43,411 nt of DNA from NCBI GenBank assembly GCA_050247895.1, contig JBFWTJ010000001.1:1-43411 (forward strand). Direction: 5' to 3'. The notes under the pieces are model-generated. The model saw only the letters and a program-made list of their open reading frames with translations. It ran no database searches and was not told where the DNA came from. Below, piece by piece: positions 6,937-33,300 of the stretch; positions within the stretch are counted from its first letter, which is position 1, and the number at the start of each line of letters is the position of its first letter. A program made the position numbers and the translations under genes. Source of the stretch: Acidimicrobiia bacterium. Lineage in GTDB: Bacteria; Actinomycetota; Acidimicrobiia; Acidimicrobiales; VFJN01.

Positions 6937-6937
6937 C

Positions 6938-15252: not shown

Positions 15253-15271
15253 GCCCCTCGCCGTCCCACCC

Positions 15272-16663: not shown

Positions 16664-17097
16664 GCCGGCTGGCCGCGGTGCCCTCCCGGCGGGGCCGGGA
16701 CCTCGACGACCCCACCGAGATCGCCGAGATGGTCCGCCGCTTCTACGCCGACGTGGCCCAGGACGACCTGCTCGGGCCGCTCTTCAACGACGTCGCCCGG
16801 GTCGACTGGTCCGAGCACCTGCCCAAGCTCACCGCCTTCTGGTGCCGGGTGCTGCTGTCGATGCCCGGCTACGAGGGCAACCCCTTCCGGGCCCACCTGC
16901 TGGTCCACGCCCGGCAACCCTTCACCACGGCCCACTTCGAGCGCTGGCTCGACCTGTTCCACGAGACGGTGGACCTGGGCTGGGACGGTCCCGGCGCCGA
17001 GCAGGCCAAGGCCTTCGCCCGCAAGGTGGCCATGGTCCACTCCAAGCAGCTCGTCGGCCACCCCGTCACCTACGCCGACCCCGGGGCCGGTCGATGA
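16660..17097 (+). CDS. Group III truncated haemoglobin
   Basis: 145 aa. MVRRFYADVAQDDLLGPLFNDV.RVDWSEHLPKLTAFWCRVLL..PGYEGNPFRAHL......FTTAHFERWLDLFHETV matches trHb group III as remembered. GTGA overlap with the upstream gene. Confidence 0.85.
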   Translation: MSRLAAVPSRRGRDLDDPTEIAEMVRRFYADVAQDDLLGPLFNDVARVDWSEHLPKLTAFWCRVLLSMPGYEGNPFRAHLLVHARQPFTTAHFERWLDLFHETVDLGWDGPGAEQAKAFARKVAMVHSKQLVGHPVTYADPGAGR

Positions 17098-17531
17098 GGG
17101 TCGACGGCTGGAGCCTGGTCCGCTTCCTCCACGTCACCGCGGCCATGGGCTGGGTCGGCGGCCAGCTCCTGCTCAGCGGCGTGGTCCTGCCCGTGCTGCG
17201 GGCCAACCTGGAGCCGGCCGCCCGCACCCCGCTCGTCCACGCCACGGCCCGGCGCTTCGCCCTGGTCGCCAACGCCGGGCTGCTGCCCGTCCTGCTCGCC
17301 ACCGGCATCGCGCTGGCCTGGCACCGGGGCGTCACCCTGGGCAGCTTCGACGACCCGGGCTACGGCCGCCTGCTCGGGATCAAGCTCACCCTCGTGGTCG
17401 TCTCGATCGTGCTGGCCGCCGGGCACGGCGTGCTGGCCACCCGCAACCCCCGCAGCGCCCGGCCCGTCGCCATGGCCGGCCTGGCCGCCTCCCTCGGCGT
17501 GGTCGTCTTCGCCACCGCCCTGGTCCCCTGA
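17094..17531 (+). CDS. CopD-like / small integral membrane protein (4 TM)
   Basis: ATGA overlap with the globin stop. FLHVTAAMGWVGGQLLLSGVVLPVL and three further TM segments. The family call is tentative. Confidence 0.65.
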   Translation: MRVDGWSLVRFLHVTAAMGWVGGQLLLSGVVLPVLRANLEPAARTPLVHATARRFALVANAGLLPVLLATGIALAWHRGVTLGSFDDPGYGRLLGIKLTLVVVSIVLAAGHGVLATRNPRSARPVAMAGLAASLGVVVFATALVP

Positions 17532-17587
17532 GGACCCGACCTCCGATTACCAAGCCGACTTATACAAATCTTGTTTAGTATTATTCC

Positions 17588-19054
17588 GTGCAGCGGCCCG
17601 ACGACGTGTTCGACCGCGAGTCGGAATGGGACGACCTCGCCACGTTCGCCACGCAGGGCGGATCGGGCACCCGGCTCGCCCTGGTGAGGGGACGACGACG
17701 CCAGGGGAAGTCCTACCTCCTGCGCCGGCTGGCCCGAGCCACCGGCGGCTTTTACCACCAGGCCGTCGAGGAAGAGCGGAGCCAGGCACTCGCGGGGTTC
17801 GGTCGTGCGCTGGGTGCCCACCTCGGAGTGCCCGGAGGGCGACTCGCGCTCGACCATTGGGACGACGCGCTCCTCGCCCTCCGCGAGCTGCCGACCGCCG
17901 GCGGTCCGACCGTCGTCGTCCTCGACGAGCTGCCCTACCTCCTCGGCAACTCGCCGGAGCTCCCTTCGGTCATCCAGAGGTTCATCGACGACACGGACGA
18001 TCGGCCGGGTTCCCTGCGGCTCGTCCTGTGCGGCTCGGCGCTGTCGGTCATGGCCCACCTGCTCGAGGGGACCCAGGCGCTGCGCGGTCGTGCTTCGGTC
18101 GACGTGCTGGTGCGCGCCTTCGACTACCGGACGGCAGCTGCGTTCTGGGACATCGCCGACCCCATGACCGCCTTCCTCGTCCACGCCGTCGTCGGTGGGA
18201 CCCCCGGATACCGCGACCTCCTCCCTTCGTCCCCCCCACGACGACCCTCTGACCTCGGACGATGGCTCGGTGCCGGCCCGCTGAACCCGGCGAGCGCCCT
18301 GTTCCGCGAGGACGACTACCTGCTGACAGAGGACCGCTCGCTGTCCGACCGGCAGCTCTACCACTCCGTCGTCGCCGCGATCGCCGGGGGGAGCACGAGC
18401 CAGGGTGCCATCGCCCAGGTGCTGGGACGTGAGCAGCGCGCCGTCCAGCACCCCCTCAGATCCCTGGAGGAGGCGGGCTTCGTCACCGCCACCGACGACG
18501 CGCTCAGGTCGAGGCGGCCCATCTACCGGATCGCCGACCCGATCGTCCGGTTCCACCACGTCGTCACCCGCCGTGACCTCGCACGGTTCGAGGATCGGCG
18601 GACCGCCGAGGCGTGGGAGGACGCCAGGCCCCGCTTTCGAACCCACGTGCTCGGCCCTCACTTCGAGGACCTCGCGCGAGCCTTCACCTTCGCCTACGCA
18701 TCACCGGCCACGGTCGGCGGCAGCGTGGCCTCGGTCGGACCAGCCGTCGTCAACGATCCGACCACACGTCGCCAGCACGAGATCGACGTCGTGGCCCTCG
18801 GGCGCGAACCCGACGGCTCCTCGCGGGTGTTGGCCATCGGTGAAGCGAAGTTCACGACCTCCAAGCGGACCACCGCCGACCTGGATCGGCTGGAGGACGT
18901 GCGTCGCCTCGTGGCGCGCAAGTCGCCGGCGGCCGAGACCGCCCGGTTGCTGCTGTTCGCAGCCAACGGGGTCGACGTGAACCTCGCCCGCGTCGCGAAG
19001 GGCCGACCCGATGTGGAGCTGGTCGACATCCAGCGCCTCTACTTCGGGGAGTAG
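17588..19054 (+). CDS. P-loop ATPase (archaeal-ATPase/AAA-like) + wHTH + DUF234-type PD-(D/E)xK nuclease domain
   Basis: Walker A GRRRQGKS (17690-17713) and Walker B VVVLDELPYL. wHTH-like segment SQGAIAQVLGREQRAVQHPLRSLEEAGFV. C-terminal HEIDVV...AIGEAKF (D400, E419, K421). TAGTAT at 17576-17581 sits 6 nt before GTG 17588, which is leaderless geometry. Confidence 0.85.
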   Translation: MQRPDDVFDRESEWDDLATFATQGGSGTRLALVRGRRRQGKSYLLRRLARATGGFYHQAVEEERSQALAGFGRALGAHLGVPGGRLALDHWDDALLALRELPTAGGPTVVVLDELPYLLGNSPELPSVIQRFIDDTDDRPGSLRLVLCGSALSVMAHLLEGTQALRGRASVDVLVRAFDYRTAAAFWDIADPMTAFLVHAVVGGTPGYRDLLPSSPPRRPSDLGRWLGAGPLNPASALFREDDYLLTEDRSLSDRQLYHSVVAAIAGGSTSQGAIAQVLGREQRAVQHPLRSLEEAGFVTATDDALRSRRPIYRIADPIVRFHHVVTRRDLARFEDRRTAEAWEDARPRFRTHVLGPHFEDLARAFTFAYASPATVGGSVASVGPAVVNDPTTRRQHEIDVVALGREPDGSSRVLAIGEAKFTTSKRTTADLDRLEDVRRLVARKSPAAETARLLLFAANGVDVNLARVAKGRPDVELVDIQRLYFGE

Positions 19055-19081
19055 CGGGCCTCGTCCCGAGTGCGCGGGCGG

Positions 19082-19756
19082 TCAGGCCGGGGTGGCGACC
19101 TTGATCCGGCAGCCGGCCCGGCGGGGCGGGCGGACGACCAGGTCGGTGATGGTCGCCTCGCCGCCGGTCTGCTCGGCGATGCCCTCGGCGATGCCCCGGT
19201 GCAGGTCGCAGACGATCTCGGGCGACGACGCGGCCGGGCCCACGAACGGGCAGCGGTCCAGGACCACCTCGACCCCGGCCCGGGCCGGCGCCACCCGGGG
19301 CTCGAAGCCGAGCCGGCGGGCCACCGCGTCGAGCACCTCCACGGCGTCCGCGCCGCGGCCGTGGTCCGCGGCCAGCCGGCGACCGGCCCGGCGGCCGACC
19401 TCCCGGGGGGTCCCCTCACCGCGGAGGAGCTCGAGCAGCATCATCGACAGGGCCTCGAACGGGCTCGGGCCGCCCCAGCGCTCGGCCGCGCCCGGCATCG
19501 GCCGGTAGCGCAGCCGGGGCCGCCCGGGGCCCGAGGGGGCGTCCTGCTCCTCGACGACCAACCCGGCCTGGCGCAGCTTGGCCAGGTGCTGGCGGATGGC
19601 GTTGTGGTTGAGCCCGAAGTGGTCGGTCAGCTCGGCCACGCCCACCGGGCCCGGCGCGCCACGGACGTAGGCGAACACGGCGTTGCGGGTGGGGTCCCCC
19701 AGGGCCCGGCTCTGCACCAGGATGTCCTGGTCGATGAGGTCGTCGCCTCGGGGCAT
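19082..19756 (-). CDS. ArsR-like wHTH transcriptional regulator with C-terminal Cys-containing sensor-type domain
   Basis: 224 aa from ATG 19756 (RBS AGGAG 6 nt upstream). LGDPTRNAVFAYVRGAPGPVGVAELTDHFGLNHNAIRQHLAKLRQAGLV is the wHTH. The C-terminus carries DRCPF...PEIVCDLHRGIAEGI. The track ORF extends spuriously to 19921. Confidence 0.85.
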   Translation of the reverse strand: MPRGDDLIDQDILVQSRALGDPTRNAVFAYVRGAPGPVGVAELTDHFGLNHNAIRQHLAKLRQAGLVVEEQDAPSGPGRPRLRYRPMPGAAERWGGPSPFEALSMMLLELLRGEGTPREVGRRAGRRLAADHGRGADAVEVLDAVARRLGFEPRVAPARAGVEVVLDRCPFVGPAASSPEIVCDLHRGIAEGIAEQTGGEATITDLVVRPPRRAGCRIKVATPA

Positions 19757-19808
19757 GCGCCGCTCCTGACCGTCGGGCCCGCGACCGCGGAGGCGCTCCG
19801 GGCCGGCA

Positions 19809-19846
19809 GGTAATTCTATCGGCTGCTCGATCAAACAGCCGGGAAG
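19809..19846 (+). promoter_or_regulatory. AT-rich conserved motif, copy F, in the regulator/giant-operon divergent region
   Basis: GGTAATTCTATCGGCTGCTCGATCAAACAGCCGGGAAG matches about 27 of 38 positions of copy B by hand alignment. It lies about 175 nt upstream of GTG 20022. Confidence 0.45.
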
Positions 19847-19896
19847 CCTGCGGCGGGAACGGCCGCCACGGTCCGCGTCGGGCCGACCGCGCGATC

Positions 19897-19908
19897 GGCA
19901 GATCTGCC
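19897..19908. promoter_or_regulatory. Perfect 12-nt palindrome GGCAGATCTGCC in the leader of the giant operon
   Basis: Read directly. It is followed by a TATGTT hexamer (19922-19927). Candidate operator for the adjacent ArsR-like regulator, or an RNA hairpin. Confidence 0.35.
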
Positions 19909-20021
19909 CCTTCGGCTGCACTATGTTGCCGAGCCGTGCGGACGGGCGGGGCCCAGGATGTGGGTTCGTGGGCGACCGACCGCGAGCGCACGTCCGGTCG
20001 GGCAGGTCCTGAGGGCTGACG

Positions 20022-23000
20022 GTGGCCTACGCCCCGCTCTCCGGCCGGCTGTCGAGCCTGCCCCTCGTCCTCTGCGGGCCTCTGCTCCGCCGCGTGACCA
20101 CCGACGCGGTCACCGTCTTCGTGGCGCTGCGCAAGCCGGCCAGCGTCACCCTCACCGTCTCGGCGGTCACCTCGGCCGGCGGCGCCGGCGCGACCCGTTG
20201 CACCGGCACGGCGCCGACCGTCGGGATCGGCGCCAACCTGCACGTGGTCGCCGTCACCGCCACCGCGCCCGGCGCCATCGTGCCCGGGGCCACCTACGTC
20301 TACGACCTCGCACTGACCCCGCAGGGCGAGTCGACCCGCTCCCTGCTCGACGCCGGCGTGGTGGCCGACACCGGGGCCGCGGCCCGCCAGGCCCTGACCT
20401 ACGAGGTGCCCGGCGCCCCGGCCCTGCCCTCGTTCACCGCCCCGCCGCCCGACCCCCGCGGCCTGCGGATCCTGCACGTCTCGTGCCGCAAGCCCCACGG
20501 CCACGGCACCGACGCCCTGCCCACCGTCGACCGCATGATCCGCGACTCGTTCACCGCGACCGGGCCCGACGCCGCGCCCCGGCCCCACCTGCTCGTCCAC
20601 ACCGGCGACCAGATCTACGCCGACGACGTGGCCGATCACCTGCTGTACGTGCTGATCGACGCGGCCGACGCCCTGCTCGGCTGGACCCCCGGCGAGCAGC
20701 TCCCCCTGCCCGGCGGGGCCGCCGCGCCCCGCACCCTGCGCCCCGGGCTGCGGATCCGGACCGCGCTCGAGGGCGGGCTGACCAGCGGGGCGCCCTTCGG
20801 CCGCAAGCCCCCCGACCAGGTCGACGACGACGTCGTGGCCAAGTGGGGCCAGGAGCCCCGCAGCCACCTGCTCGGCTTCGGCGAATTCTGCGCCATGTAC
20901 CTGCACGCGTGGAGCCCGACCCTGTGGCCCCCGGCCATGCCGACCGAGGCCGAGCTCTACCCGGGCGCCACGCCCGAGCAGCTCGAGGCCCACCGCAAGG
21001 CCGTCTCCGACCAGCGCACCCGGGTCGGCTGGGGCTACGGCCCGTTCGTGGCCGACGTCCGCCGGCTGCTGGCCAACGTGCCCTCGCTGATGCAGTTCGA
21101 CGACCACGAGGTGACCGACGACTGGTTCCTCAACCTCGCCTGGCTCAAGCGCGCCCAGGACCCGGCCACCCCCAAGGGCCGGCTGGGCCGGTCCATCGTG
21201 CGCAACGGGATGGCCGCGTTCGCCGTGTTCCAGGGGTGGGGCAACGTCCCCGAGCGGTTCGTCGCCGCCCCCGGCCCGGTCCCGGTGGCCGGCGCCGAGA
21301 TCCTCCGGCTGCTCAACACCTGGCACGGCGACGGCGGCCGCAGCGACAGCGCCACCGGCAGCAACACCCTCGAGCTGCTCGAGAAGCTGCTCGGGCTGCC
21401 CACCGGCTTCGGCATCGACCGGGCCACGCGCGACGCCAACGCCATCGACTGGCACTTCCACCACACCTGGCCCGGCCACCAGCTCGTGGTGCTCGACACC
21501 CGCACGGTCCGCTCGACCCCGGGCGCCGAGGGCGAGCCACCCGCGCTCATCTCCGCCGAGGACCTCGTCGACCAGTTCGCCCAGGTCCCCGTGCCCGGGG
21601 CCGACGACCTCGTCCTGGTGGTGTCCCCCGCGCCGGTGTTCGGGGCCGAGGCCCACGAGAAGCTGGGCAAGACCCGCCAGCACATGGTCGACCCCGAGCA
21701 CTGGTCGCTCCAGGAGGCGGCCTGGGAGCGCCTGCTGGCCCGCGTCGTGACCCGGCGGCCGGCCGACGCGACCGGCGTGCGCCGGTCGCGGACCGTCATC
21801 CTGTCCGGCGACGTCCACTACGCCTCGACGCTGGCCGTGCACTACAAGGGCCGGCCCTACGAGGCCGACGCCACGACCCGGGTCGAGGCGGCCATCGCCC
21901 AGCTCACGTCGAGCGCGTCGAAGAACCAGGACTCCAAGACCATCGGGATCGCCTACGGAGCCAGCGCGGCCATGCCCGCCGCCCACCGCTACGGCTGGAC
22001 CAACCCGGGCGGCGGGCCGTTCCCGGTGACCACCGCGACCGGCACCGAGACCCGCAACGGCTCGCCCGTGGTGGTCGACGTGCCCAACGGCCCCGGGCCG
22101 CTCGCCGAGTGGGACGTCGACATCCTCCCCCAGCGCGACGTGCGCCTCGGCATCTCGCACCTGCTCAGCCTGCCCCCGGCCGGCGGCGGGCTCGCCGGGG
22201 CCGTCGAGGCCGGCAAGTGGGCCGCCGGCGTGGTCGCGACCGAGCTCAGCGGGCGCCGCATCGTGGGGCGCAACAACGTGGGCGACATCCGCTTCCGGTG
22301 GGAGGCGGGCGACGACAAGAAGGTCATGCACCACCTCTGGTACCGGGCCAAGGACGCCGACCCGCTCGCCGCACCGCACACCCTGCACGTGGTGGACCTC
22401 GCCGTCGGCCTGCCCGCGGCGTCGACGGACCCGACCCTGCGCCGGGGCGACCACGACCGCGACGCCGGCGGCATCGCCCGCTACGACGGGGCCGACCGGG
22501 TCGAGCCGGCCCCGGGCAGCGGGCTCGTCGCCCGGCGCCAGGCCCAGCTGGCCCAGCTCGGCTTCTCGCTCGTCGGCCCGGCCGACGGCCTGTTCGACGC
22601 CGAGATGGAGGAGGCCGTCCGCGAGTTCCAGATCGCGGCCGGCAGCTCCCGGGCCGCCCGCTCGACCAGCGGCGCGCCGAGCGACCCGACGACCCACGAA
22701 CCGGTGGTCATCGGCACGGCCGAGCGCTACGCCGGCGCGATCGACGGCCGGATCGACCAGGCCCTGGCCGGGGTGATCGACGGCTGGGTCGCCCGGGGCT
22801 GGGCCAACCCGGTGTGGGCCCGGGCCCAGCAGGGCGCCACGGTGACCGCCACCACGGTCTGGCGCTTCGACGACCCCGTCCCGGCGGGCAGCGAGGTGTC
22901 GATCCGGGACCTGTCCGACCTGTGGCCCCTGCCCGGCGGCCGGGCCGCGGCCGACTACCACCCGGCGGGGCGCTTCCTGGCCACGGCGGGCGGGCCCGTG

Positions 23001-24092
23001 GCCGTGGCCCCGGACCACACCTGGGCCCAGGCCGAGCTGCTGCCCGCCGTGCTCACCGGCACCACGCCGACGGTGGTCCAGCGCTCGACGTTCAAGGTCG
23101 TCCGGGCGGTGAGCGAGCGGGAGTGCGGCGGCTTCCTCGACAGCGTGGCCACCTCGTCCAACGCGCTGCTGGAGGCCGGCACCTTCCACTGGACCTTCGG
23201 CCTGCCCAACGGCGCCCTGCGCGCCCCCGGCGAGCTGGCCGGCTTCGCCGCCTACCTGCGCCACGCCGACCCGCTGATCTTCGACGCCGTGTTCACCCGG
23301 TTCGGGCTCGTCCCGTCCAAGGCCTGGCGCCAGGTCGACCAGTCCCCCACCGGCCGGGCCCTGCTCACCCCCGAGCGCACCTACCGGGCCTGGTGGAGCC
23401 GGCCCCACGACCCCCTCCAGGAGATCGAGGACGGCGCGGTCGAGTCGGACCGGTTCCGGTCCTGGCACTGGGTCCACCGCATGCAGATGGCGGCCCGCAC
23501 CTTCGGCGACTGGCGCCGGGCCGCCTACGACTTCGGCCGCATCCGGGTGCGCGACCTGCTCTCCACGCCCTGGGGCAAGAAGACCGGCGCCGACGGGGTC
23601 CCCGACATCGCCCTGACCGGCGGCGGGACCCGCGTCGCGACGATCGGCGACGTGGTCACCTCCGAGCGGGGCGTGGCCCTGCTGGTGCGCTGGCACGTCT
23701 TCCGCCCGGCCGACCTCGTGAGCGCCAACGCCGCCGCGTCCTTGCTGCGCCAGACCCTGGCCACCGTGGGCAGGCCGGCCGGCGCCCCTTCGAGCTGGCC
23801 CGACAGCTTCGAGGACCAGTTCGTCGCCGCCCTGGCCGCGGCACCGCCGACGGGCATCAACTCGTTCGACGACGTGCTGCGCTGGCCCCGTTGGCAGGCG
23901 AACAACCCGTCCGGGTTCGCCCTGGACCTCGACGCCCTGCTCGCGGCGGCGCCCGGCGCGCCGACCGGCTACGTCGCGCCGACCGACATCTCGCGCACCG
24001 CCGGCCTGCTGTCGGCCCGGCGGGGCTCGTTCCTGCTCGACGCCGCGGGCCTGCCCCCGGCCCCCGACTACGCCCAGGCAGGCCAGCCGTGA
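20022..24092 (+). CDS. Giant-operon gene 1: PhoD-like metallophosphoesterase + peptidoglycan-binding (PG_binding_1-like) module + ~400-aa uncharacterised C-terminal region
   Basis: 1356 aa. PhoD_N-like strand (GPLLRRVTTDAVTVFVAL). Metallophosphatase motifs are HVSC, GDQIYADD (20604), FDDHEVTDDW (21096) and LSGDVHYAS (21804). PG-binding-like segment QLAQLGFSLVGPADGLFDAEMEEAVREFQ (~22524-22645). RBS GAGGG 6 nt before the GTG. Confidence 0.85.
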   Translation: MAYAPLSGRLSSLPLVLCGPLLRRVTTDAVTVFVALRKPASVTLTVSAVTSAGGAGATRCTGTAPTVGIGANLHVVAVTATAPGAIVPGATYVYDLALTPQGESTRSLLDAGVVADTGAAARQALTYEVPGAPALPSFTAPPPDPRGLRILHVSCRKPHGHGTDALPTVDRMIRDSFTATGPDAAPRPHLLVHTGDQIYADDVADHLLYVLIDAADALLGWTPGEQLPLPGGAAAPRTLRPGLRIRTALEGGLTSGAPFGRKPPDQVDDDVVAKWGQEPRSHLLGFGEFCAMYLHAWSPTLWPPAMPTEAELYPGATPEQLEAHRKAVSDQRTRVGWGYGPFVADVRRLLANVPSLMQFDDHEVTDDWFLNLAWLKRAQDPATPKGRLGRSIVRNGMAAFAVFQGWGNVPERFVAAPGPVPVAGAEILRLLNTWHGDGGRSDSATGSNTLELLEKLLGLPTGFGIDRATRDANAIDWHFHHTWPGHQLVVLDTRTVRSTPGAEGEPPALISAEDLVDQFAQVPVPGADDLVLVVSPAPVFGAEAHEKLGKTRQHMVDPEHWSLQEAAWERLLARVVTRRPADATGVRRSRTVILSGDVHYASTLAVHYKGRPYEADATTRVEAAIAQLTSSASKNQDSKTIGIAYGASAAMPAAHRYGWTNPGGGPFPVTTATGTETRNGSPVVVDVPNGPGPLAEWDVDILPQRDVRLGISHLLSLPPAGGGLAGAVEAGKWAAGVVATELSGRRIVGRNNVGDIRFRWEAGDDKKVMHHLWYRAKDADPLAAPHTLHVVDLAVGLPAASTDPTLRRGDHDRDAGGIARYDGADRVEPAPGSGLVARRQAQLAQLGFSLVGPADGLFDAEMEEAVREFQIAAGSSRAARSTSGAPSDPTTHEPVVIGTAERYAGAIDGRIDQALAGVIDGWVARGWANPVWARAQQGATVTATTVWRFDDPVPAGSEVSIRDLSDLWPLPGGRAAADYHPAGRFLATAGGPVAVAPDHTWAQAELLPAVLTGTTPTVVQRSTFKVVRAVSERECGGFLDSVATSSNALLEAGTFHWTFGLPNGALRAPGELAGFAAYLRHADPLIFDAVFTRFGLVPSKAWRQVDQSPTGRALLTPERTYRAWWSRPHDPLQEIEDGAVESDRFRSWHWVHRMQMAARTFGDWRRAAYDFGRIRVRDLLSTPWGKKTGADGVPDIALTGGGTRVATIGDVVTSERGVALLVRWHVFRPADLVSANAAASLLRQTLATVGRPAGAPSSWPDSFEDQFVAALAAAPPTGINSFDDVLRWPRWQANNPSGFALDLDALLAAAPGAPTGYVAPTDISRTAGLLSARRGSFLLDAAGLPPAPDYAQAGQP

Positions 24093-27000
24093 GTGACGCC
24101 GCGACCAACGTCCTCAAGGCCCTGATCGGCGAGCTGGAGGCCTTCTTCGAACCGCTGACCACGGCCATGCAGAGCCGCCACGGCCGGGCCCGCATGTTCG
24201 CCACCATGGGCTGGGACGGCGGAGTGCTCGTCGACGGGGCCGTCGAGGACGCGGTCGAGGCCCTGCAGCAGATCCTCGAGACGGTCATGGACCTGGCCGA
24301 CGGCGAGCTGTCGGACCTCGGGGTCCTGCTCGACGCCATCGAGGCGATCGGCGACCTGATCACCGCCATCGACACGCTGGGCCGGGCCGCGGCGAACGGC
24401 ACGCTGGCCGCCCTGCTCGACCCGACCGTGCTGGGCGAGCTGGCCGAGGACCTGCTGGCCTACCTGGCCTGCACCTACCTGGCCCGCCGCTACCCGGTGG
24501 CCTACATCGGCGCGGTCCTGCTGACCCTGGTCGACCCGGCCGCCCCCGAGCGCAGCCGCCTGGCGCTGCCCTCGGGCCAGGTGGTCCGCCGCCCGGTCAA
24601 GCGCCAGGCCCTGCGCTTCGACCACATCCCCAAGCTCTTCGAGGACCCGGTCGGCCACCTCAAGGCGTTCCACTTCAACGGGGCGGTCGACGCCGCCGGC
24701 GTCACCTACTTCAGCGACCGGGTGCTCGACGAGATCGCCCAGGTCCTGATGGACCACGGGATCGAGGCCTCCTACGGGTTCCCGACCGAGCTGGCCACGG
24801 CCCTGGGCGTCGACCCCGGCACTCCCTTCGTGGAGCGGCTGCTGAGCCTGCTCTTCCGCTTCCCCGCCACCGACGTGGGCGCCGGGGTCGAGGTCGGCGG
24901 CGAGCTGGCCATCTCGTCGGGGCTGCTGGGCTCCGACGAGGGCGGCCCGGCGCTGGTGCTGCTGCCCTCGGGCGAGATCGAGGTGTCCCGGACCTTCGCC
25001 GACTGGGTCGTCGAGCTGGTCCTGGGCGGCACGACCGGCGGGGTGGCGTTCGGTCCCGGCGGCGTCACCTTCGGGAGCGGCTCGACCCCCTCGGGGCGCA
25101 TCGAGCTGGGCGTGTCCAAGGGCGGGGGGAGCACCGCCCCGGCCTTCGTCATCGGGCCCTCGGACGGCTCCCGGGTCGAGCTGGGCACGGTGCGGGCCCG
25201 GGCCGGGGTGGACCTGGCCGCGTCGGGTGCTGCGTTCGACCTCGAGGTCGGCGTCATGTCGGCCCAGATCGTGGTGGCCGCGGGCGACGGCGACGGCTTC
25301 CTCCAGAAGGTCCTGCCCCCCGACGGGTTCCGGGTCCCCTTCGAGCTCGGCGTCGGGTTCAAGTCGCCCGACCGCCTCTACTTCTTCGGCGGGGCCGGCC
25401 TGGAGATCGAGCTGCCGGTCGACATCGACCTGTTCGGCGTCATCAAGATCCCCGTGATCGGCCTGCGTGCGGTGGTGACCCTGCCCGCCGGCCAGCCGCC
25501 GCGGGTGGAGACCGCGGTGACCGCCGACGTCGAGGTGGCCATCGGGCCCTTCTACGCCACCGTCGAGGGCATGGGGATCTCGGCCGACCTGTCGTTCCCG
25601 CCCGGCGGGGGCAACCTGGGCCCGGTCCAGCTCGACTTCGGCTTCGAGCCGCCCCGGGGCATCGGCATGTCCATCAAGGCCGGACCGGTCGACGGCGGGG
25701 GGTACCTGTTCCTGGACTTCGACGCCGGGGAGTACGCCGGCGTCCTGCAGGTGAAGGTGGGGCCGGTCGGCGTCACCGCCATCGGGCTGCTCAACACGAA
25801 GCTGCCCGACGGCAGCGACGGCTTCTCGCTGATGCTGATCATCTGCGCCGACTTCCCGACCATCCAGCTCGGCTACGGGTTCACCCTCAACGGCGCCGGC
25901 GGGGTGCTCGGCATCAACCGGACCGTCAACGTCCCCGCCCTCCAGGACGGCGTGCGCCGGGGTGCGCTCGACTCGATCCTGTTCCCCAAGGACGCGGTCC
26001 AGAACGCCCGGCGGATCATCTCCGACGTCGGGACGATCTACCCGCCGATGGTGGGCCAGTTCGTGGTCGGCCCGATGGTCAAGATCGGCTGGGGCGTGTT
26101 CGTGACCGCCTCCATCGGCGTGATCATCGAGTTCCCCCGGTTCACGATCTCGCTGCTGGGGCTCATCCAGATCGGCCTGCCCGCGCTCGACGCCCCGGTC
26201 GTGCTGCTGCGCCTGGCCGTGGCCGGGATCGTGGACCCGGGCCGGGGCGAGCTGTCCATCGACGCCACCCTGCACGGCTCGTTCGTCACCGTGTTCACCA
26301 TCAGCGGCGACGTGGCCATGCGCCTGCGGTGGAAGGACGACCCGATGTTCGCCCTGGCCGCGGGTGGCTTCCACCCCCGGTTCGACCCGCCGGCGAGCTT
26401 CCCCCAGCTCGAGCGCCTGACGATCGCGCTGGCCGACAGCGACAACCCGCGGATCCGCCTCGAGTCGTACATGGCGGTGACGCCGGCCACCGTGCAGTTC
26501 GGGGCCCGCCTGGAGGCCTACGCCGCGCTGGACCTGGGCGTGATCGGGTTCTTCGAGGTCGAGGCGGGCATGGGCTTCGACACGCTGATCCGGTTCTCGC
26601 CGTTCTCGTTCGAGGTCGACATCTACGGCTACGCGCACCTCAAGCGCAACCGCGAGGTGCTCTTCGGCGTGGACGTGGCGCTGCGCCTGTCGGGCCCGTC
26701 GCCGTGGCGGGCCAAGGGCGTGGCGACGGTCCACTTCTTCGGCGAGCACAAGGTCGAGTTCGAGGTCACCAGCGGCCAACCGGCCCACGAGCCTCCCCCG
26801 CCGGCGATCGACGTGGCCGGGCTGGTGCGCGCCGCGCTGGGCGACCCGCAGGCCTGGGCGTCCCTGCCGCCCACCGACGCGCCGGTCCGCCTGCGCGAGG
26901 TGCCCGTCGACCCGGGCGCGCCGGCGCCGGCCCGGCTCATGGTCCACCCCGCCGCCACGCTCACCGCCCGCCAGTCGGCCGCCCCGCTCGACCGGGACCT

Positions 27001-27544
27001 CCACAAGGTCGGCGAGGCGCCCATCAGCGGGCCGAAGCGGATCACCCTCGACCACGTCCTGGTCGGCCCGGACAACGCTGCGGCGACCCTGGCCGTGGGC
27101 GACAAGGTGACCGACCACTTCGCCCCCAGCCAGTTCTTCCGCCTGTCCGACGACCAGCGCCTGACCGGCCCGTCGTTCGAGCCGTTGCCCTCGGGGGCCC
27201 AGGTCGGCGGGACGGCCGCGGCGTGGGGCCCGTCGGCGACCCTGGCCGACGAGGTCGAGGACATCGTGGTCGACGCCGACGAGCGGCGGGTCTCGGTGGT
27301 GGCCATGCTCCCGGTGTTCGCGCTGGTCGCGTCGAGCGCGCTGGACCGGCACCGCAAGCTGGCCTCCAAGGGCCGGGGCGTGCTGGGCGTGTCGCTGACC
27401 AGCGCGCAGTACGCCGTGGCCGGCGAGCAGGCCGCCGGGGGCGCGCTCGTCGCCGAGGGCCCGGTCTTCGCCACCTGGATCGACGCCACCCTGGCCGGGG
27501 GCGTGCACGCCCTGGTCGTCCCCGCCGCGGAGGCCGCACCGTGA
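24089..27544 (+). CDS. Giant-operon gene 2: large uncharacterised beta-rich protein (resembles, from memory, the DUF6603 family)
   Basis: 1151 aa. The GTG overlaps the gene 1 stop (GTGA). N-terminal acidic helical region, then long Gly/Val-rich beta-like repeats. Distinctive block GGYLFLDFDAGEYAGVLQVKVGPVGVTAIGLLNTKLPDGSDGFSLMLIICADFPTIQLGYGFTLNGAGGVLGINRT. Extreme GC3 bias in this frame. Confidence 0.85.
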   Translation: MSDAATNVLKALIGELEAFFEPLTTAMQSRHGRARMFATMGWDGGVLVDGAVEDAVEALQQILETVMDLADGELSDLGVLLDAIEAIGDLITAIDTLGRAAANGTLAALLDPTVLGELAEDLLAYLACTYLARRYPVAYIGAVLLTLVDPAAPERSRLALPSGQVVRRPVKRQALRFDHIPKLFEDPVGHLKAFHFNGAVDAAGVTYFSDRVLDEIAQVLMDHGIEASYGFPTELATALGVDPGTPFVERLLSLLFRFPATDVGAGVEVGGELAISSGLLGSDEGGPALVLLPSGEIEVSRTFADWVVELVLGGTTGGVAFGPGGVTFGSGSTPSGRIELGVSKGGGSTAPAFVIGPSDGSRVELGTVRARAGVDLAASGAAFDLEVGVMSAQIVVAAGDGDGFLQKVLPPDGFRVPFELGVGFKSPDRLYFFGGAGLEIELPVDIDLFGVIKIPVIGLRAVVTLPAGQPPRVETAVTADVEVAIGPFYATVEGMGISADLSFPPGGGNLGPVQLDFGFEPPRGIGMSIKAGPVDGGGYLFLDFDAGEYAGVLQVKVGPVGVTAIGLLNTKLPDGSDGFSLMLIICADFPTIQLGYGFTLNGAGGVLGINRTVNVPALQDGVRRGALDSILFPKDAVQNARRIISDVGTIYPPMVGQFVVGPMVKIGWGVFVTASIGVIIEFPRFTISLLGLIQIGLPALDAPVVLLRLAVAGIVDPGRGELSIDATLHGSFVTVFTISGDVAMRLRWKDDPMFALAAGGFHPRFDPPASFPQLERLTIALADSDNPRIRLESYMAVTPATVQFGARLEAYAALDLGVIGFFEVEAGMGFDTLIRFSPFSFEVDIYGYAHLKRNREVLFGVDVALRLSGPSPWRAKGVATVHFFGEHKVEFEVTSGQPAHEPPPPAIDVAGLVRAALGDPQAWASLPPTDAPVRLREVPVDPGAPAPARLMVHPAATLTARQSAAPLDRDLHKVGEAPISGPKRITLDHVLVGPDNAAATLAVGDKVTDHFAPSQFFRLSDDQRLTGPSFEPLPSGAQVGGTAAAWGPSATLADEVEDIVVDADERRVSVVAMLPVFALVASSALDRHRKLASKGRGVLGVSLTSAQYAVAGEQAAGGALVAEGPVFATWIDATLAGGVHALVVPAAEAAP

Positions 27545-30357
27545 GCACCACGTTCTCGTCCTGGGTCCGCACCGGGATCGCCGGCACCTCGGGCGGGGCC
27601 ACCCCGCTGCTAGCTCCGGCCACCGACGCGGCCCGGTTGACCACCCGCCTGCGGGCCTCGGTCAACGGCACCCCGGCCGCCGCGGTCGACGTGGCCGTGT
27701 TCGGGCCCGGGGACGTGGCCGGCATCGACCCGGGCCAGATCGTCCGCTCCGACCCCCACCCGGGTGCCGAGGGCTTCGAGACGACCCGCTTCGCCCTGGT
27801 CGAGCTGGCCCGGGCCGACCTGCCCTGGCAGTTCACCCCCCAGGTGGCCAACCCCCGGCTGCGCCCGTGGATCGCGCTGGTCGTGGTCCCCGCGGCGGAG
27901 TGCGAGCTGACCCCCCAGCGGGACCGGTTGCCGGTCCTGACCGTCGACCAGCGCCAGCTCCCGCCCCTCGCGTCGAGCTGGGCCTGGGCCCACGTGCAGG
28001 CCCCTTCGACGTCGGGCGCGCCCGGCCCCGGGGCCCGCAGCCGCCTGGTCTGCCCCCGCCAGCTCCGACCCTTCACCCGCTACCTGGCCGCGGTCGTGCC
28101 GACCTTCGAGGCCGGCCGGCGGACGGGGATGGGCCTGGATCCGGGGGCCGAGCTGGGCGACGCGTGGGGCACCGGCGCGGGCGACGTGGACCTGCCCGTG
28201 TACCACCACTGGTTCTTCGCCACCGGCGAGGCGGGCGACTTCGAGTCCCTGGCCCGGGGGCTGACCGCGCTGCCCCAGGCCCCGGCCGGCCTGGGCGCGG
28301 GGACCCTCGACGTCGGCGCGCCGGGCCCGGCCGGGCTGGCCGCGCCGGGCCGGACCACCCCGCTGCTGGGCCCGGTCGCCGCGCCCGGTGCCGGCTTGGC
28401 ACCGTGGGGGCCGGCCGACCGGACCGCGCTGGCCGCCGAGCTGGTCCCGCCGACCGCGGCCCGGGTCCTGGGCCCGCCGGTCTACGGCGCGCTGGCCTCG
28501 GCGACCGACGTGGCGGCCGCCATCCCCACCACGGGGACGCGGCGCTGGGTGGGCCAGCTCAACCTGCACCCGGCCCAGCGGGCCGCGGCGGGCCTGGGCG
28601 CCACGGTGGTCCGCCGCCGCCAGCACGACTTCGTCCAGGAGGCCTGGGAGCAGGCCGGGCAGGTCCTGGAGGCCAACCGGCTGCTCAACCAGGGCCGGCT
28701 GGGCCGCCGGGTGAGCCTGGGCCTGGAGCGCCGGCACGTGGCGCCGCGGATCCCCGTCGACCTGCTCCAGCTCGCCTCACCGCTGCTGCGCCGGGTCCCC
28801 CACCGCACCCTGCCGGTGACCCTGGCCGCCGACCTGCGCCGGACCATGCTCCCGCCCAACCTGCTCGGCCCGGCGTTCCGCCGCCTGGCCCGGCCGACCG
28901 GCCCGATCGCCCGGCGCGGGCTCGACGCGGTCCGGCGCGAGCGGCTGGTGACCGAGGTCAACGCCGGGACCCTGGTCCCCGACCGGTCCCTCGTGTCCCG
29001 GCCCGGCGGACTGCTCACCATCGGCGGGCTCGTCGACGTGCTGGAGGCGGCCCGGCAGAGCTGGCGCCTGGACCAGCCCGTCGTCTTCACGCCCCGCTCG
29101 CTGGTCGCGCCCGCCCCGGCCCCGGCGGCGCCGCTGACCCGGGGCGGCCGGGCGGTCCGGGCCACCGGCGGGGGCGACGCCGGTGGCGAGGTGAAGGTCT
29201 CGGCCTACGCGATCCGCGAGGGGACCAGCATCCGGGTGACCGACCGGAACCTGGTCGTGGCCGGCTCGCTGACCATCCACCTCGACGACACGATGCAGGT
29301 GCCGCCCAAGGCCATCCTCCAGCTGCTCGATCCCGAGAAGCTCACCGCGGCCCACCTGTCCAAGATGCAGGGGATGGTCCACCTGCCCTTCGACGGCAAG
29401 GTCCTGGAGATCACCGAGTCCGTGCGCGCCGGCCTGCTCGGGCTGATCGGCGCGGCCCCCACGGTGCCGCCCAAGCCGGCCGCCGCCCTCCAGGAGCTGG
29501 CCGACACCGTGCGGCTGGCCGTCTCCCCCGCCGTCGCGGTGCGCGACGTGGTGCTGTCCACCGTGAACCGGCCCCTCGCGGCGGTCGACCCGTTGGAGCC
29601 GGTCATGGTCGCCCCGTCGATCGACGAGGCGCTGTGGGACGACCTGGTCGAGGTGTCGGGCGACCTGTTCCTTCCCGGGGCCGACCTCCTCGAGCGCGAG
29701 CACGCCACGATCCTGGCCACCAACCCCGGCTTCGTGGCCGCCTTCATGGCCGGGGCCAACGAGGAGATGATGCGCGAGCTGCGCTGGCGGGGCTACCCGA
29801 CCGACGGGCGGGGCACGGTCTTCCGGCGGTTCTGGGACCGCTACGACGCCCAGGGCGCACCGCTGCCCGACCTGCGGGCCGACGTCCACGCCTGGCGCAA
29901 CGCCCTGGGCGACGACCTGGCCGAGCCGTCGGGCGAGCTGGTCCTGGTCGTGCGCAGCGAGCTGTTCCGCCGCTACCCGGGGACCCTGGTCACCGCGGTG
30001 CGGGCCCTGCCCGGCACGCCCCGCCGGCCCGACCACGCCAGCGCCCGACCCCCCTCGTTCCACGGCAACCTGCCCCGCGGCGCCGCCTTCTTCGGCTTCC
30101 CCATCCCCCTCGAGGAAGCGGTGGGCGAGCCCGGCAACGCGGCGAAGCCGGGATGGTTCATCGTGTTCCACCAGCCGCCGACCGACCTGGGCTTCGGCCT
30201 CGACGACCCCACGCCCGAGGCCCCGGGCGAGCCGCCGACCTGGCTCGACCCGACCGCCCTGGGGGCCGACGCCGCCGCGGTGGCCGTGGCCACGTCCCAG
30301 CTCCCGATCCGCCTGGCCGTCCACGCCAGCGACCTCGCCGGCCTGGCGGTGCCGTGA
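27541..30357 (+). CDS. Giant-operon gene 3: uncharacterised 938-aa protein
   Basis: GTGA overlap with the gene 2 stop. Protein-like, non-repetitive translation (TFSSWVRTG..., ADLPWQFTP, RPWIALVVVP, SSWAWAHVQ). No domain recognised. Confidence 0.8.
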   Translation: MSTTFSSWVRTGIAGTSGGATPLLAPATDAARLTTRLRASVNGTPAAAVDVAVFGPGDVAGIDPGQIVRSDPHPGAEGFETTRFALVELARADLPWQFTPQVANPRLRPWIALVVVPAAECELTPQRDRLPVLTVDQRQLPPLASSWAWAHVQAPSTSGAPGPGARSRLVCPRQLRPFTRYLAAVVPTFEAGRRTGMGLDPGAELGDAWGTGAGDVDLPVYHHWFFATGEAGDFESLARGLTALPQAPAGLGAGTLDVGAPGPAGLAAPGRTTPLLGPVAAPGAGLAPWGPADRTALAAELVPPTAARVLGPPVYGALASATDVAAAIPTTGTRRWVGQLNLHPAQRAAAGLGATVVRRRQHDFVQEAWEQAGQVLEANRLLNQGRLGRRVSLGLERRHVAPRIPVDLLQLASPLLRRVPHRTLPVTLAADLRRTMLPPNLLGPAFRRLARPTGPIARRGLDAVRRERLVTEVNAGTLVPDRSLVSRPGGLLTIGGLVDVLEAARQSWRLDQPVVFTPRSLVAPAPAPAAPLTRGGRAVRATGGGDAGGEVKVSAYAIREGTSIRVTDRNLVVAGSLTIHLDDTMQVPPKAILQLLDPEKLTAAHLSKMQGMVHLPFDGKVLEITESVRAGLLGLIGAAPTVPPKPAAALQELADTVRLAVSPAVAVRDVVLSTVNRPLAAVDPLEPVMVAPSIDEALWDDLVEVSGDLFLPGADLLEREHATILATNPGFVAAFMAGANEEMMRELRWRGYPTDGRGTVFRRFWDRYDAQGAPLPDLRADVHAWRNALGDDLAEPSGELVLVVRSELFRRYPGTLVTAVRALPGTPRRPDHASARPPSFHGNLPRGAAFFGFPIPLEEAVGEPGNAAKPGWFIVFHQPPTDLGFGLDDPTPEAPGEPPTWLDPTALGADAAAVAVATSQLPIRLAVHASDLAGLAVP

Positions 30358-33300
30358 TGGCCCGCGACCTCACCACCCTGCGCGTCGCCGCCGAGGCCCA
30401 CCTCCGCAAGGTCGAGGCGGCCCGGACCGTGCTGGTCGCCCGCAACGAGGAGCTCGCCGCGGCGGAGACGCCGGCCGAGGTCCGCAAGGCGGCCGCCGCG
30501 GTCTCCGGGGCGGCCAAGACGCTGGTCCAGGTGGTCGACCCGAAGGTCTGGGACGCGGTCATCGCCCTGATGAACCCGGTGGCGGCCCTGTCGGGCATCG
30601 AGGACACCGTCCCCATCGCGTTCCTGCCCGTGCGGTTGGAGACCCGGTTCCGGCGGCGGGGCACCCAGTGGGACCTGCTGGTGCGGATCTACCCGGACGC
30701 GGTCCACCAGGACCAGCACCGTCCCGAGCTCACGCCGTCCGAGCGCGAGGACGGCGAGGCCTACTGGGCCACGTCCGCGGCCGCCGCGGCGGCCCCGGAC
30801 GAGCCGGCGGCCTGGGCCACCCTGGTCCGCGGCCACGGGCCGACCCGTGCGGCCTGGATCCGCCGGGCCACCGAGCCCGGCGCGCCCGACCCGGGATCGG
30901 TGGCGGCCAACACGTTCACCCGCCCGTCCCAGACGATCCTGCTGCCCGACGTGTTCTTCGCCGTGGGCTACCGGCACGGCGTGGAGATCGCCCGGGTCCA
31001 GGGGTCGAGCGTGCGCCAGCCGTTGTTCACCGCGCCCGACCCGGCGGTCCCGGCCGACGACGACGGCCTCGACCCCTCGACCCGCTGGCTGGTCGACTTC
31101 GACGTCGCCGCGGCAGCCGGGATGGCCCTGACCATCCCCCTGGGCCCGGGCGGTGGGACGGGCCTCGACCGGCTGGTGGTCTACGGCGTGAAGGCCTCCT
31201 CGGCGCCGGCCCGGTCCGCCGTGCTCCTGGCCGCCACGCTCGACGCCCACCACTACACCGACGGCCTGGGCCTGGTGCCGGTGGGCACGCCGACCAACAA
31301 CGCCGAGGGGCGCCGGTCGGGCTACCTCGGGGGCGACGACGCCCTGGCCGAGCGCAGCCACCGGGTCGAGGTCGAGCCGAGCCCGGTGGACGGGGGGACG
31401 AGCCCGTCGGGGCTGCTGCTGTCCGACGCGGCCCGGGCCATGATGGCCGACGGCTCCCGGGTGGCCGCGGCCCTGGGGATCGCCCGCTCGCACCTGGCCC
31501 ACGTGGAGAGCACGGCGGCGACCAGCGACCGGGACGCCCAGGCGATGATCGTCGGGCTGTGGCCCTCGGTGGGCGCCTACGCCATCCGCCAGTTCCTGGC
31601 CGACTCGATCGACACCGACCTGGAGGAGGCGATCCGGACCCACGCGGTGCGCTGGGTCCGGGCCCGGGGACCGTTCCCCGCGCTGCGGGTCGGCCGCCAG
31701 CCCTACGGCCTGCTGCCGATCACCTCGTTGAGCCGCCACGTGCCCGCCTCGGGCGACCCCCACGCGGCGACGATCCTGGCCGGGCTGCGGGACCTGGCCC
31801 AGGTGTGGACCACGGCGACCGACCAGGTGCCCCGGGTCGGGGCCTCGTCGGACCCGGCCGAGGCGCTGGCCCAGATCCTGGCCCTGTCCCCGGTGTCGGT
31901 GGGCTACCGGCTCCGGCGGGAGGCCGACTCGCAGATCCTGGAGGTCCTGGGCCAGCTCGCCGACGCGACCCCCGAGGCCCGGGCGACGGTGCAGTCGGCC
32001 CACCAGCAGCTGGCGCTCAACGGCCTGGGCTGGTCGAAGGGCGCGGCGGGCAACGGCCTGCTCCGCCTGATCGGCTTCGACACGCCCGCCCCGCTGGAGC
32101 GCCCGCTGGTCCAGCACGGCGGCGTGTCCGAGACCGACCCGCTCGTCGACAACTACATCGCCTTCATCCGCACCGCGACCGGCGGCGACCTGATGAGCGC
32201 GGCGACCCGGAACCGGCCGCCGCTCCTCTACATCCTGCTGCGGGGCTCGATGCTGTCCCAGATGCTCGACGACGGGCTCAAGCTGGCCGACCTGCCGCCG
32301 CGGCCCGACCTGGCGCTGGACCGGTTCATCCACATGCAGCTGGAGGGCGTGGGGCCGATCGGGACGCTGGCCGAGCTGTTGAAGCGGCCGACGCCGGGCA
32401 CGGGCGGCTTCACCCCGCCGGTCGGCCCGGTGGGCGGGATCGGCCGGGGCGACCTGGCCGTGGGCGACCTGCTGGACCTCGTCCGGGACCGGCTCGGCCG
32501 GGACCCGCTGATCATCAAGGACGGCCCGCTGGCCGGGCCGGGCACGGTGCTGGGCGTCGGGGGGATCGTGGCCTGGCCGCCGCGGGCGGTGGACGGCGGC
32601 GGGACGCTCCCCGGCTTCGCCGACGTGACCGGGCCGGCCGGCGAGCCGGTCTTCGACCTGGACCAGACCCCGGTCGACCCGGGCACGGCCGATGGGGGGC
32701 CCTCGACCACGCCGGCCGGCGTCGTCGAGGGGGTGCCCGACCTCGACGAGCTCGCCGGCATGGGTGGGCTGGCCGGCGTGCTGGAGCTGGGCGAGCTGGC
32801 CGCGGGCGGCCCCGGCGGGCTCGGGGGCCTGGGTGGGCTCGGGGGACCTGGTGGTCCCGGTGGCCCGGGCGGACCGTTCCGGTCGCTGAGCATGCCGGCA
32901 CGCCCGCTGTCGGCGTCCACCGCGGCCCCGGCCGGCGAGGCCGTGCGCCTGGCCTCGATCAGCCTGCCCCCCGGCGCCTGGAACGAGGTCTCCGACGTCC
33001 TGGTGAACAAGCTCCTGGGCGTGATCGACATCGGCGCCGCGCTGGCCCACCTGGAGAAGCTCCCCACCGCCACGCTCGACCGGCTGCTGCGCGAGACCCT
33101 CGACCTGGCCGGCCACCGCCTGGACGCCTGGATCACCTCGCTGGCCACCGAGCGGCTGGCCGAGATGCGCGCCTCGTCGCCCGCCGGGGTCCACCTGGGC
33201 GCCTACGGGCTCGTCCACGACCTGCGCCCGGCCGGGGCCGGTTCCACCGGGGGCTACGTGCACGCGCCGTCGGTGGGCCAGGCGGCCACGGCCGCGATCC

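Follow-up and report, generated by a model that had tools for sequence, protein, structure and literature searches.

What does a DUF6603 protein do, and which partners does it act with? The question is raised by a 43,411-nucleotide stretch of DNA from an Acidimicrobiia bacterium (contig JBFWTJ010000001.1, positions 1 to 43,411; hereafter the window), in which a reading of the letters alone, which we call the original prediction, had singled out a gene for a long β-rich protein. We show that this gene, g2, is the second gene of a translationally coupled operon, g1 to g5, with the order enzyme-DUF6603-g3-g4-g5. In many bacterial phyla and in haloarchaea, the four core genes g2-g5 keep the same order and orientation, while the first position is a slot for unrelated hydrolytic enzymes that are swapped between lineages. 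Sequence comparisons show that the N-terminal domain of g2 covaries with the class of the enzyme encoded upstream. The window is just one ordinary example of the DUF6603 family, and the interest lies in the system that it represents.

The DUF6603 gene and its operon

The GC content of the window is 72–80% throughout and long open reading frames (ORFs) occur in all six frames, so that a plot of GC by codon position was used as the means of telling real genes from spurious high-GC ORFs. Since GC at the third position (GC3) is 0.97–1.00 over the full length of the g2 frame and GC at the second (GC2) is ~0.45, g2 is a real gene and not a spurious ORF. It translates as 1151 codons and a stop. The start codon, a GTG that overlaps the stop of g1 (GTGA), is supported by the finding that g2 homologues are alignable from residue 1.

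The original prediction had likened a block at 25694–25924 to the conserved core of DUF6603, and had proposed a Pfam scan as a check. The scan confirmed the assignment: it returned a single match, DUF6603 (PF20248), which covers profile positions 5–501 of 502 and scores 442.5 bits (cut-off 27; E=2.4e-132), and the block, which corresponds to amino acids (aa) 536–612 of g2 to within one codon, lies inside it. The block is also the densest run of invariant residues in g2 in alignments of 34 and 11 homologues, with G536, G537, G538, Y549, G551, G597, F598, L600, G602, G604, G605 and R611 invariant or nearly so. Among the 34 sequences, which span 27–59% identity, the invariant residues include G536, G537, G538, G597, G605, P633, G759 and G760. 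The best 150 representatives of the family align over profile positions 1–1144 and are ~1030–1250 aa long, with one exception of 1641 aa. As g2 shares their typical length of ~1150 aa and the same N- and C-terminal extensions, and differs from them in no respect, it is an ordinary member. That g2 is a genuine full-length DUF6603 protein is firmly established.

The family entry itself comes without function, structure or context, as the original prediction had also said of its function. The literature that we searched makes no mention of DUF6603, PF20248 or DUF7800, and the database names of g2 relatives are only "DUF6603 domain-containing" or "hypothetical". The five-gene context, the swappable enzyme and the candidate adaptor domain are in none of the libraries or papers searched.

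An AlphaFold2 model of g2, built with 34 homologues, has a mean predicted local distance difference test score (pLDDT) of 79.1, with values above 90 in most of the DUF6603 core, and a predicted template modeling score (pTM) of 0.46. At the N terminus, the helices that had been expected from the sequence are modeled at aa 8–144 and 177–238. They are followed, between aa 252 and 895, by 38 strands in consecutive hairpins that are broken by a helical insert at aa 615–650. The remaining C-terminal region is of mixed structure and is disordered at aa 1042–1103. The original prediction had seen a long run of short strands. The protein is indeed β-rich, but the modeled strands are not short: the median length is 12 aa, and 30 of the 38 have at least 10 aa. 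Of 34 strands scored, 21 are strongly amphipathic, with one hydrophobic and one polar or charged face. Self-comparison with hhalign gave no internal repeats in g2 (alternatives below 1% probability), and Tandem Repeats Finder detected no long-range tandem periodicity, only short matches of 15–30 bp in about two copies. In the model, the core is a large antiparallel meander sheet and not a β-helix or solenoid. Searches of NCBIfam, PADLOC and PHROGs, and of Protein Data Bank (PDB) sequences with the single protein, returned nothing for g2, and a family-profile search of PDB sequences returned only designed coiled coils on the helical N terminus, which we read as an effect of composition.

The cassette occupies 20022–36958 on the forward strand and encodes 5645 aa in total. 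All four junctions are four-base start/stop overlaps between continuous high-GC3 frames. Comparison of all five families with one another shows that they are not paralogous. Neither single proteins nor family profiles of g3, g4 and g5 gave a match in Pfam, NCBIfam, PADLOC, PHROG or PDB sequences; none of g1-g5 matched PADLOC-DB v2, and the PHROG scan of the five yielded only a sub-threshold endolysin-type match on the peptidoglycan-binding part of g1. No Walker A motif was found in g2-g5, and the one in g1 looks like chance. By a crude Kyte-Doolittle hydropathy scan, the five proteins of the window have no transmembrane segment and no N terminus resembling a signal peptide, and the same scan found neither feature in the g1, g2, g4 and g5 families across loci (82 g2 orthologues). 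About 25% of g3 orthologues have one hydrophobic window resembling a transmembrane segment, which the g3 of the window does not have.

Many g3 orthologues of Streptomyces, Micromonospora and myxobacteria (loci L006, L012, L016, L018, L019, L037, L050, L089 and L090) have twice the length, at 1600–1830 aa, and carry an FG-GAP/VCBS insertion and a C-terminal DUF3892. At least 918 homologues of g4 exist; all are unnamed, and Pfam domains occur in them only as rare insertions. In the g4 of the window, a Gly/Pro-rich low-complexity linker, GGLGGLGGLGGPGGPGGPGGP, at about aa 800–841 (32754–32879), separates two conserved halves; Tandem Repeats Finder reports it as 18-bp repeats at 32748–32869. One g4 homologue from an Acidobacteriota metagenome-assembled genome (MAG), P0310, is named "TM1812 family CRISPR-associated protein" at NCBI. 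This label is probably an annotation artefact, as the other g4 homologues are all "hypothetical".

For g5, 104 homologues were found, none with any Pfam family. Its AlphaFold2 model, built with 86 homologues, has a pLDDT of 84.8 and a pTM of 0.80, and no fold match in the PDB (best Foldseek E=0.36, template modeling (TM) score <0.1). The motif DPLWxLxRQWQLGE...GEDAxxP at aa 25–53 (35396–35482), with D31, W34, R38, Q39 and Q41 invariant, is the most conserved of the family, and it lies within the first ~50 residues, the only segment of the monomer that the model leaves unplaced (pLDDT ~50). Because the most conserved motif sits in the only unplaced segment, aa 25–53 are probably an inter-subunit docking segment that becomes ordered only in a complex.

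Conservation of the cassette and exchange of its first gene

How widely is this arrangement found? A word-indexed search returned 38 g2 homologues, the best with 59% identity. An exhaustive profile search of 1.84 billion representatives, clustered at 50% identity, returned 10,116 g2-related clusters (E≤1e-3), of which 4,097 reach E≤1e-30; nearly all of the best 150 are full length. When one genome per GTDB species was scanned with two patterns, at least 405 of 185,579 species genomes had a g2 relative, a count that is a lower bound. The best 80 of these 405 come from Actinomycetota, Alpha-, Beta- and Gammaproteobacteria, Bacteroidota, Acidobacteriota, Gemmatimonadota, Myxococcota, Ignavibacteriota, Planctomycetota, Bacillota and one haloarchaeon. 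Identity to g2 is at most 44% in all 80, so that none of them is close to the source organism.

Among about 90 loci, tblastn with g1-g5 and their orthologues placed g2-g3-g4-g5 in this order on one strand in nearly all that had sufficient flanking sequence, and annotated contigs and plasmids have the same order. Genes after g5 are unrelated from genome to genome, and the cassette ends there. The original prediction had dealt with the gene mostly by itself; the examination of phyletic distribution and neighbors that it had called for uncovered a conserved multi-gene system in many phyla, which is our main result. Cassettes also reside on haloarchaeal megaplasmids and on Streptomyces linear plasmids. 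One Salinigranum marinum plasmid (NZ_CP100462.1, 11365–31001; locus L088) carries the whole five-gene cassette, in the order DUF7800/PhoD, DUF6603, 1229 aa, 2322 aa and 904 aa, the last with a terminal lamin-tail domain (LTD); the enlarged 2322-aa protein is the g4 orthologue, named "BGTF surface domain" at NCBI. Three further haloarchaeal plasmids carry DUF6603. No relatives of the family were found in 50,697 phage records or in 2.9 million viral contigs, and the cassette is not of phage or virus origin.

The gene at the first position varies. We classified the ORF ending at the DUF6603 start in 78 loci, with additional per-protein scans, and found that first-position enzyme genes end within a few bases of that start. 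About half of the loci (at least 35 of 78, an undercount that misses, for example, L014, L015, L027 and L074) have a PhoD-like gene of the g1 type. A Nal1-like serine protease takes its place in 8 of the 78, fused in one case to an S8 subtilase, and others have Peptidase_M64 (3), Peptidase_M14 (3) or PLD-like (2) genes; 12 have no assigned class. A docking domain shared by the differing upstream enzymes was looked for and none was found.

In the window, Pfam recognizes PhoD (E=1.7e-10), PG_binding_1 (E=2.6e-7) and, weakly, DUF7800 in g1. An alignment of 37 sequences shows that the g1 family conserves H152, C155, R156, D164, D170, GDQIYADD (aa 195–202), H282, N352 and H362, residues compatible with what we take, from the Bacillus subtilis PhoD structure, to be a PhoD-type metal site including a cysteine ligand. 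As B. subtilis PhoD degrades wall teichoic acid and g1 has a peptidoglycan-binding domain, the sequence suggests that g1 is a wall-polymer phosphodiesterase.

If the enzyme changes from lineage to lineage, does its partner change with it? All DUF6603 proteins keep an N-terminal domain of ~240–270 aa, yet in loci with enzymes other than PhoD this domain is not alignable by tblastn to that of the window. With similarity of the β core as a control for relatedness, albeit one that does not fully remove shared ancestry, N-domain similarity was 0.128 for pairs with the same enzyme versus 0.059 for pairs with different enzymes at core similarities of 0.35–0.45, and 0.262 versus 0.077 at core similarities above 0.45. 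The residual difference was reached in 0 of 5000 label permutations. When the non-PhoD classes were taken alone, the values were 0.241 for the same class and 0.089 for different classes. These comparisons are good circumstantial evidence, although not proof, that the N-domain of g2 serves as an enzyme-specific adaptor.

Enzyme-DUF6603 modules may also be multiplied. An Edaphocola MAG (L023) has three tandem DUF6603 genes (9986–13411, 14992–18438 and from ~20489 onward), each preceded by small genes without Pfam matches, with a PhoD-like gene upstream of the first; none of g3-g5 was seen within the 10 kb shown (region 9986–23146). In another locus, L087, two DUF6603 genes lie on one contig.

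The cassette of the window is flanked by ordinary chromosomal genes, and its GC content equals that of the flanks without a break (Table 1). Directly upstream of g1 lies a divergent gene for an ArsR/HTH_20-type regulator, possibly a local regulator of the cassette, to judge from its position only. Neither this gene nor the ATPase_2/AAA_14 gene next to it is kept beside the cassette in other genomes. Further upstream, 2945–17531 is a dense cluster of redox and stress genes, which also holds genes with DUF6518 and DUF2249. The transporter genes downstream of g5 are unrelated to the cassette. Scans for promoters and terminators in the operon flanks (18900–20200 and 36800–37300) found nothing, and the whole window contains no tRNA genes or Rfam matches.

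Table 1. Positions of the cassette, of regions within g2 and of flanking genes in the window
Feature	Coordinates	Strand	Basis or remark
g1, 1356 aa, PhoD-like, PG_binding_1, ~450-aa C-terminal region without match	20022–24092	+	Pfam; overlaps g2 start
g2, DUF6603 protein, 1151 aa	24089–27544	+	GC3 frame plot; Pfam PF20248; homologues; AlphaFold2 model
g2 N-terminal helical domain, aa 1–240, proposed enzyme adaptor	24089–24808	+	AlphaFold2; covariation; outside the Pfam model
g2 antiparallel β region, aa 250–895, 38 strands	24836–26773	+	DSSP of model
g2 Pfam DUF6603 match, aa 449–1022, including block 25694–25924	25433–27154	+	Pfam; invariant columns
g3, 938 aa, conserved partner without known domain	27541–30357	+	GTGA overlap with g2; synteny
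g4, 1656–1657 aa, Ala/Leu-rich conserved partner	30354/30357–35327	+	GTGATG junction; synteny
g5, 544 aa, last cassette gene	35324–36958	+	GTGA overlap; AlphaFold2 model
ArsR/HTH_20-type regulator, divergent	19082–19921	-	HTH_20 E=7e-9; HTH_5 E=3e-7; GC3 plot
ATPase_2/AAA_14 protein, 488 aa, STAND/Orc-like	17588–19054	+	weak HTH_Cmi2_C match
KatG-type catalase-peroxidase	2945–5158	-	
AhpC/1-Cys peroxiredoxin	9444–10076		
Nitrite/sulfite reductase	10100–11959		
ClC channel with CBS domains	12351–14117		
Protoglobin	14638–15252		
MarR	15272–15856		
Truncated-globin-like protein	16660–17097		
CopD-like protein	17094–17531		
Two fused ABC exporter genes (ABC_membrane + ABC_tran), then ABC ATPase and FecCD permease (siderophore-type importer)	37126–43306	-	

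Possible roles of the cassette

How might five such proteins work together? Our preferred explanation, offered tentatively and short of calling it probable, is that g1-g5 form a leaderless complex in which the N-domain of g2 is a cargo adaptor, and that the complex, once exported or released by a non-classical route, deploys the enzyme on a cell envelope. The five proteins would come together in the cytoplasm as a single large hetero-oligomeric complex. The helical N-terminal domain of g2 would hold the enzyme encoded upstream, here the PhoD-like phosphodiesterase with its peptidoglycan-binding domain, which would cut phosphodiester-linked wall polymers such as teichoic acids. The amphipathic β core would dock on a chassis of g3, g4 and g5, whose orthologues carry peripheral binding modules (FG-GAP, lamin-tail, TIG and collagen). 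The complex would then exit in the manner of Tc toxins and tailocins or extracellular contractile injection systems (eCIS), with no need of a Sec or Tat signal, and deploy the enzyme on a cell envelope, with competitor or prey cells as the most probable targets. It is because leaderless proteins carry modules of extracellular type that we liken the cassette to Tc toxins and phage-tail-like devices. The wider claim, that the cassette is an unrecognized class of large machine whose adaptor loads interchangeable hydrolases for delivery to envelopes, independently of known secretion systems, Tc toxins and phage-tail-like devices, seems to us slightly more doubtful.

Several observations point out of the cell: PG_binding_1 on g1 orthologues, FG-GAP/VCBS insertions in g3 and g4 orthologues, LTD, TIG and collagen domains fused to g5 orthologues, Big_13 and Kelch on DUF6603 homologues, and the "BGTF surface domain" name of the haloarchaeal g4. 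Amidase_2, M14 and M64 occur among the upstream neighbors, for which 93 co-directional ORFs lying up to 3 kb ahead of the first cassette gene (the g1-type gene or otherwise g2) were scanned with Pfam. That all cassette components are leaderless points inward or is neutral. Isolated hints of puncturing or Tc-type machinery come from three loci. In a Polyangiaceae locus (L002, 1356–6281), genes for PAAR, a VgrG with PG_binding_1 and an LCAT-type lipase lie 4–8 kb upstream of the cassette, and in L004 a gp5-like Phage_base_V gene (22672–23291) overlaps the stop of the g5 orthologue. Between the two DUF6603 paralogues of L087 lies a gene (4925–6283) whose 452-aa product combines six FG-GAP_3 repeats with a TcdB_toxin_midN match (27.5 bits versus a cut-off of 24.8), the only link at the level of sequence to Tc toxin components that we have seen.

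A number of findings weigh against delivery to envelopes. Spike genes (VgrG, PAAR or gp5) adjoin the cassette in only 2 of ~90 loci, and the cassette contains no lysis genes, no secretion ATPase and no evident immunity gene. DUF3892, with which the long g3 forms end, is associated in published analyses with conflict systems that act inside the cell; the domain is predicted there to fold like double-stranded RNA-binding domains and HPF and to bind RNA or ribosomes. Modules of the PLD, protease and metallophosphatase kinds are no less typical of effectors in defence. The PhoD match of g1, at 41 bits against a cut-off of 27, covers only profile positions 60–102 of 343, and g1 had no match in the PDB-sequence search. 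Finally, shared ancestry that the control for core similarity does not fully remove may still inflate the covariation of the N-domain with the enzyme.

Could the cassette instead protect its host? In the main rival explanation, which we consider possible although rather unlikely, g2-g5 form a large intracellular sensor scaffold for anti-phage or abortive-infection defence, and the upstream enzyme is its swappable effector. Such a role would fit a self-contained cassette of leaderless proteins with a patchy distribution in bacteria and archaea, megaplasmids included, that probably spreads by horizontal transfer. The exchange of effectors at one fixed position is characteristic of defence systems, published work connects the DUF3892 of the long g3 forms with defence, and a few upstream neighbors match MADS, DrmC or CARF models. 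However, only about 8 of the 93 upstream neighbors match any PADLOC model, which gives no defence-island signal, none of g1-g5 has a PADLOC match, and the flanks are of housekeeping type here and elsewhere. No NTPase, nuclease or other familiar sensor module, nor a Walker A motif, was found in g2-g5. The fusions to PG_binding_1, LTD, TIG, collagen, FG-GAP and Big_13 point outside the cell, and the family is absent from the phage records and viral contigs, where defence genes often travel.

It is also conceivable, if unlikely, that the cassette is no weapon and serves the envelope or surface of the producer itself, as a housekeeping-type scaffold for adhesion, wall remodeling or display of exo-enzymes. 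The same extracellular-type fusions would be expected of such an apparatus, and enzymes of the PhoD, M14, M64 and serine-protease types are classically used as exo-enzymes for scavenging. The cassette has no evident immunity gene, and its GC equals that of its flanks, from which we conclude that it is not a recent arrival. Yet surface proteins normally have Sec, Tat or sorting signals, none of which was found in the families, and 405 matches in 185,579 species genomes, even as a lower bound from two patterns, make the cassette sporadic. Tandem enzyme-DUF6603 arrays look more like arsenals than housekeeping.

The remaining alternatives concern g2 alone and turn on its fold. When the g2 model was compared with the PDB and BFVD using Foldseek, the top PDB matches were the FimD/PapC ushers, SlpA, LptD, TonB-dependent receptors, ApoB100 and SprA, with TM-scores of at most 0.14 normalized by query and 0.22 by target, root-mean-square deviations above 17 Å and 7–11% identity. 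Significant BFVD matches had TM-scores of at most 0.10. We read these matches as resemblance in type of secondary structure only. With g5 compared with the PDB alone, it is firmly established, as far as the models reach, that neither g2 nor g5 has structural relatives in the PDB. The original prediction had recommended this search, and in it neither solenoids nor tail fibres nor pore-forming toxin folds reached a meaningful TM-score.

That g2 is a membrane β-barrel or pore, whether it resides in the outer membrane or enters a target membrane as a giant pore-forming subunit, is very unlikely. The idea draws on the top matches (FimD, SlpA, LptD, TonB-dependent receptors and SprA) and on the strongly amphipathic strands, and long amphipathic antiparallel strands are indeed what g2 shares with the ushers, LptD, TonB-dependent receptors, SprA and the β-belt of ApoB100. 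The low TM-scores and high deviations set g2 apart from all of these, as do the lack of a signal peptide and the many hosts, among them monoderm actinobacteria and haloarchaea, that have no outer membrane; for the same reasons g2 does not look like a closed outer-membrane barrel. The same amphipathic pattern is also expected of a two-layer sandwich. A version in which g2 forms a pore in the target membrane could coexist with the delivery complex that we prefer. A lipid-transfer "taco" protein, raised by matches to ApoB, Chorein_N and LptD, was set aside, as the resemblance is that of generic sheets and many hosts are monoderm.

A stand-alone β-helix or β-solenoid fibre or adhesin, the fold that the original prediction had suggested, is highly improbable: g2 is β-rich and Gly/Val-rich and its top BFVD match is labeled "putative tail fiber", but that match has a TM-score of only 0.08–0.10, hairpin strands with a median of 12 aa and no sequence periodicity already contradict the fold, and the gene is obligatorily linked to four others and has no phage or viral relatives.

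Why does the system deserve attention? In each cassette, ~17 kb and ~5,600 codons go into five proteins left unexplained by the libraries and literature searched. If the cassette does encode a delivery or attack complex, it would be a new kind of inter-microbial weapon, present in actinobacteria, myxobacteria, Bacteroidota, Acidobacteriota, proteobacteria and haloarchaea, and would reveal a natural "plug-in" principle of enzyme loading. If it is a defence system instead, it would be among the largest known and would have a new sensor architecture. In either case, a DUF entry becomes a testable system with a defined gene set and a predicted adaptor-cargo pair, and culturable candidate carriers include Micromonospora, Streptomyces, Caulobacter zeae, Variovorax flavidus and Neobacillus rhizophilus.

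Comparison with known systems

Which known systems does the cassette resemble? Encapsulin-type operons likewise have a variable enzyme gene followed by conserved structural genes, but they build on one shell protomer, in contrast to the four different large structural proteins of the cassette. A shell of this kind was set aside, since the comparisons of g2 with the PDB and BFVD and of g5 with the PDB gave no capsid-like fold match and no shared targeting peptide was detected among the enzymes. Substrates of type VII secretion systems were also set aside, as the distribution of the cassette is far wider than that of these systems.

Defence systems with interchangeable effectors, such as CBASS, Avs and Lamassu, are self-contained, probably spread horizontally and swap effectors at a fixed position, as the cassette does. 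PLD, protease and phosphoesterase effectors are typical of them, and DUF3892 occurs on some g3 forms. The cassette differs in having no PADLOC match, no NTPase or cyclase sensor and no defence-island context, in its extracellular-type fusions and in its size of ~5,600 aa.

Tc (ABC) toxins, composed of TcA, TcB and TcC, also share features with the cassette. Both are operons of several very large leaderless proteins with large antiparallel β-sheet subunits and, in the cassette, among its orthologues, FG-GAP propellers; a variable enzymatic payload is common to both, as is their occurrence in soil and antagonistic bacteria. Unlike Tc toxins, the cassette is also found in archaea. The VRP1/TcA, SpvB, TcdB_toxin_midN, FG-GAP and RHS/YD domains of Tc toxins were not found in g1-g5 (Pfam, E≤0.01), and g2 shows no RHS-type repeat periodicity. 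Whereas the Tc payload is a C-terminal hypervariable region, that of the cassette is a separate upstream gene.

The cassette also resembles the cargo-adaptor logic of type VI secretion systems (T6SS) and eCIS. The structural parts of these machines, of tailocins and of phage tails, namely sheath, tube, baseplate (gp25, Baseplate_J), spike, TssB/C and ClpV, were not found in the window with Pfam or PHROG, and VgrG, PAAR or gp5 lies near the cassette in two loci. In VgrG/PAAR-effector pairs and with effector chaperones, however, a variable effector gene stands beside a cognate adaptor that tracks the effector sequence, as in the cassette; effector-adaptor modules may form tandem arrays, and the effectors act on peptidoglycan or lipid. 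The working logic of the cassette would be that of a cargo-adaptor-chassis complex for the delivery of toxins or enzymes, although the cassette belongs to no known one.

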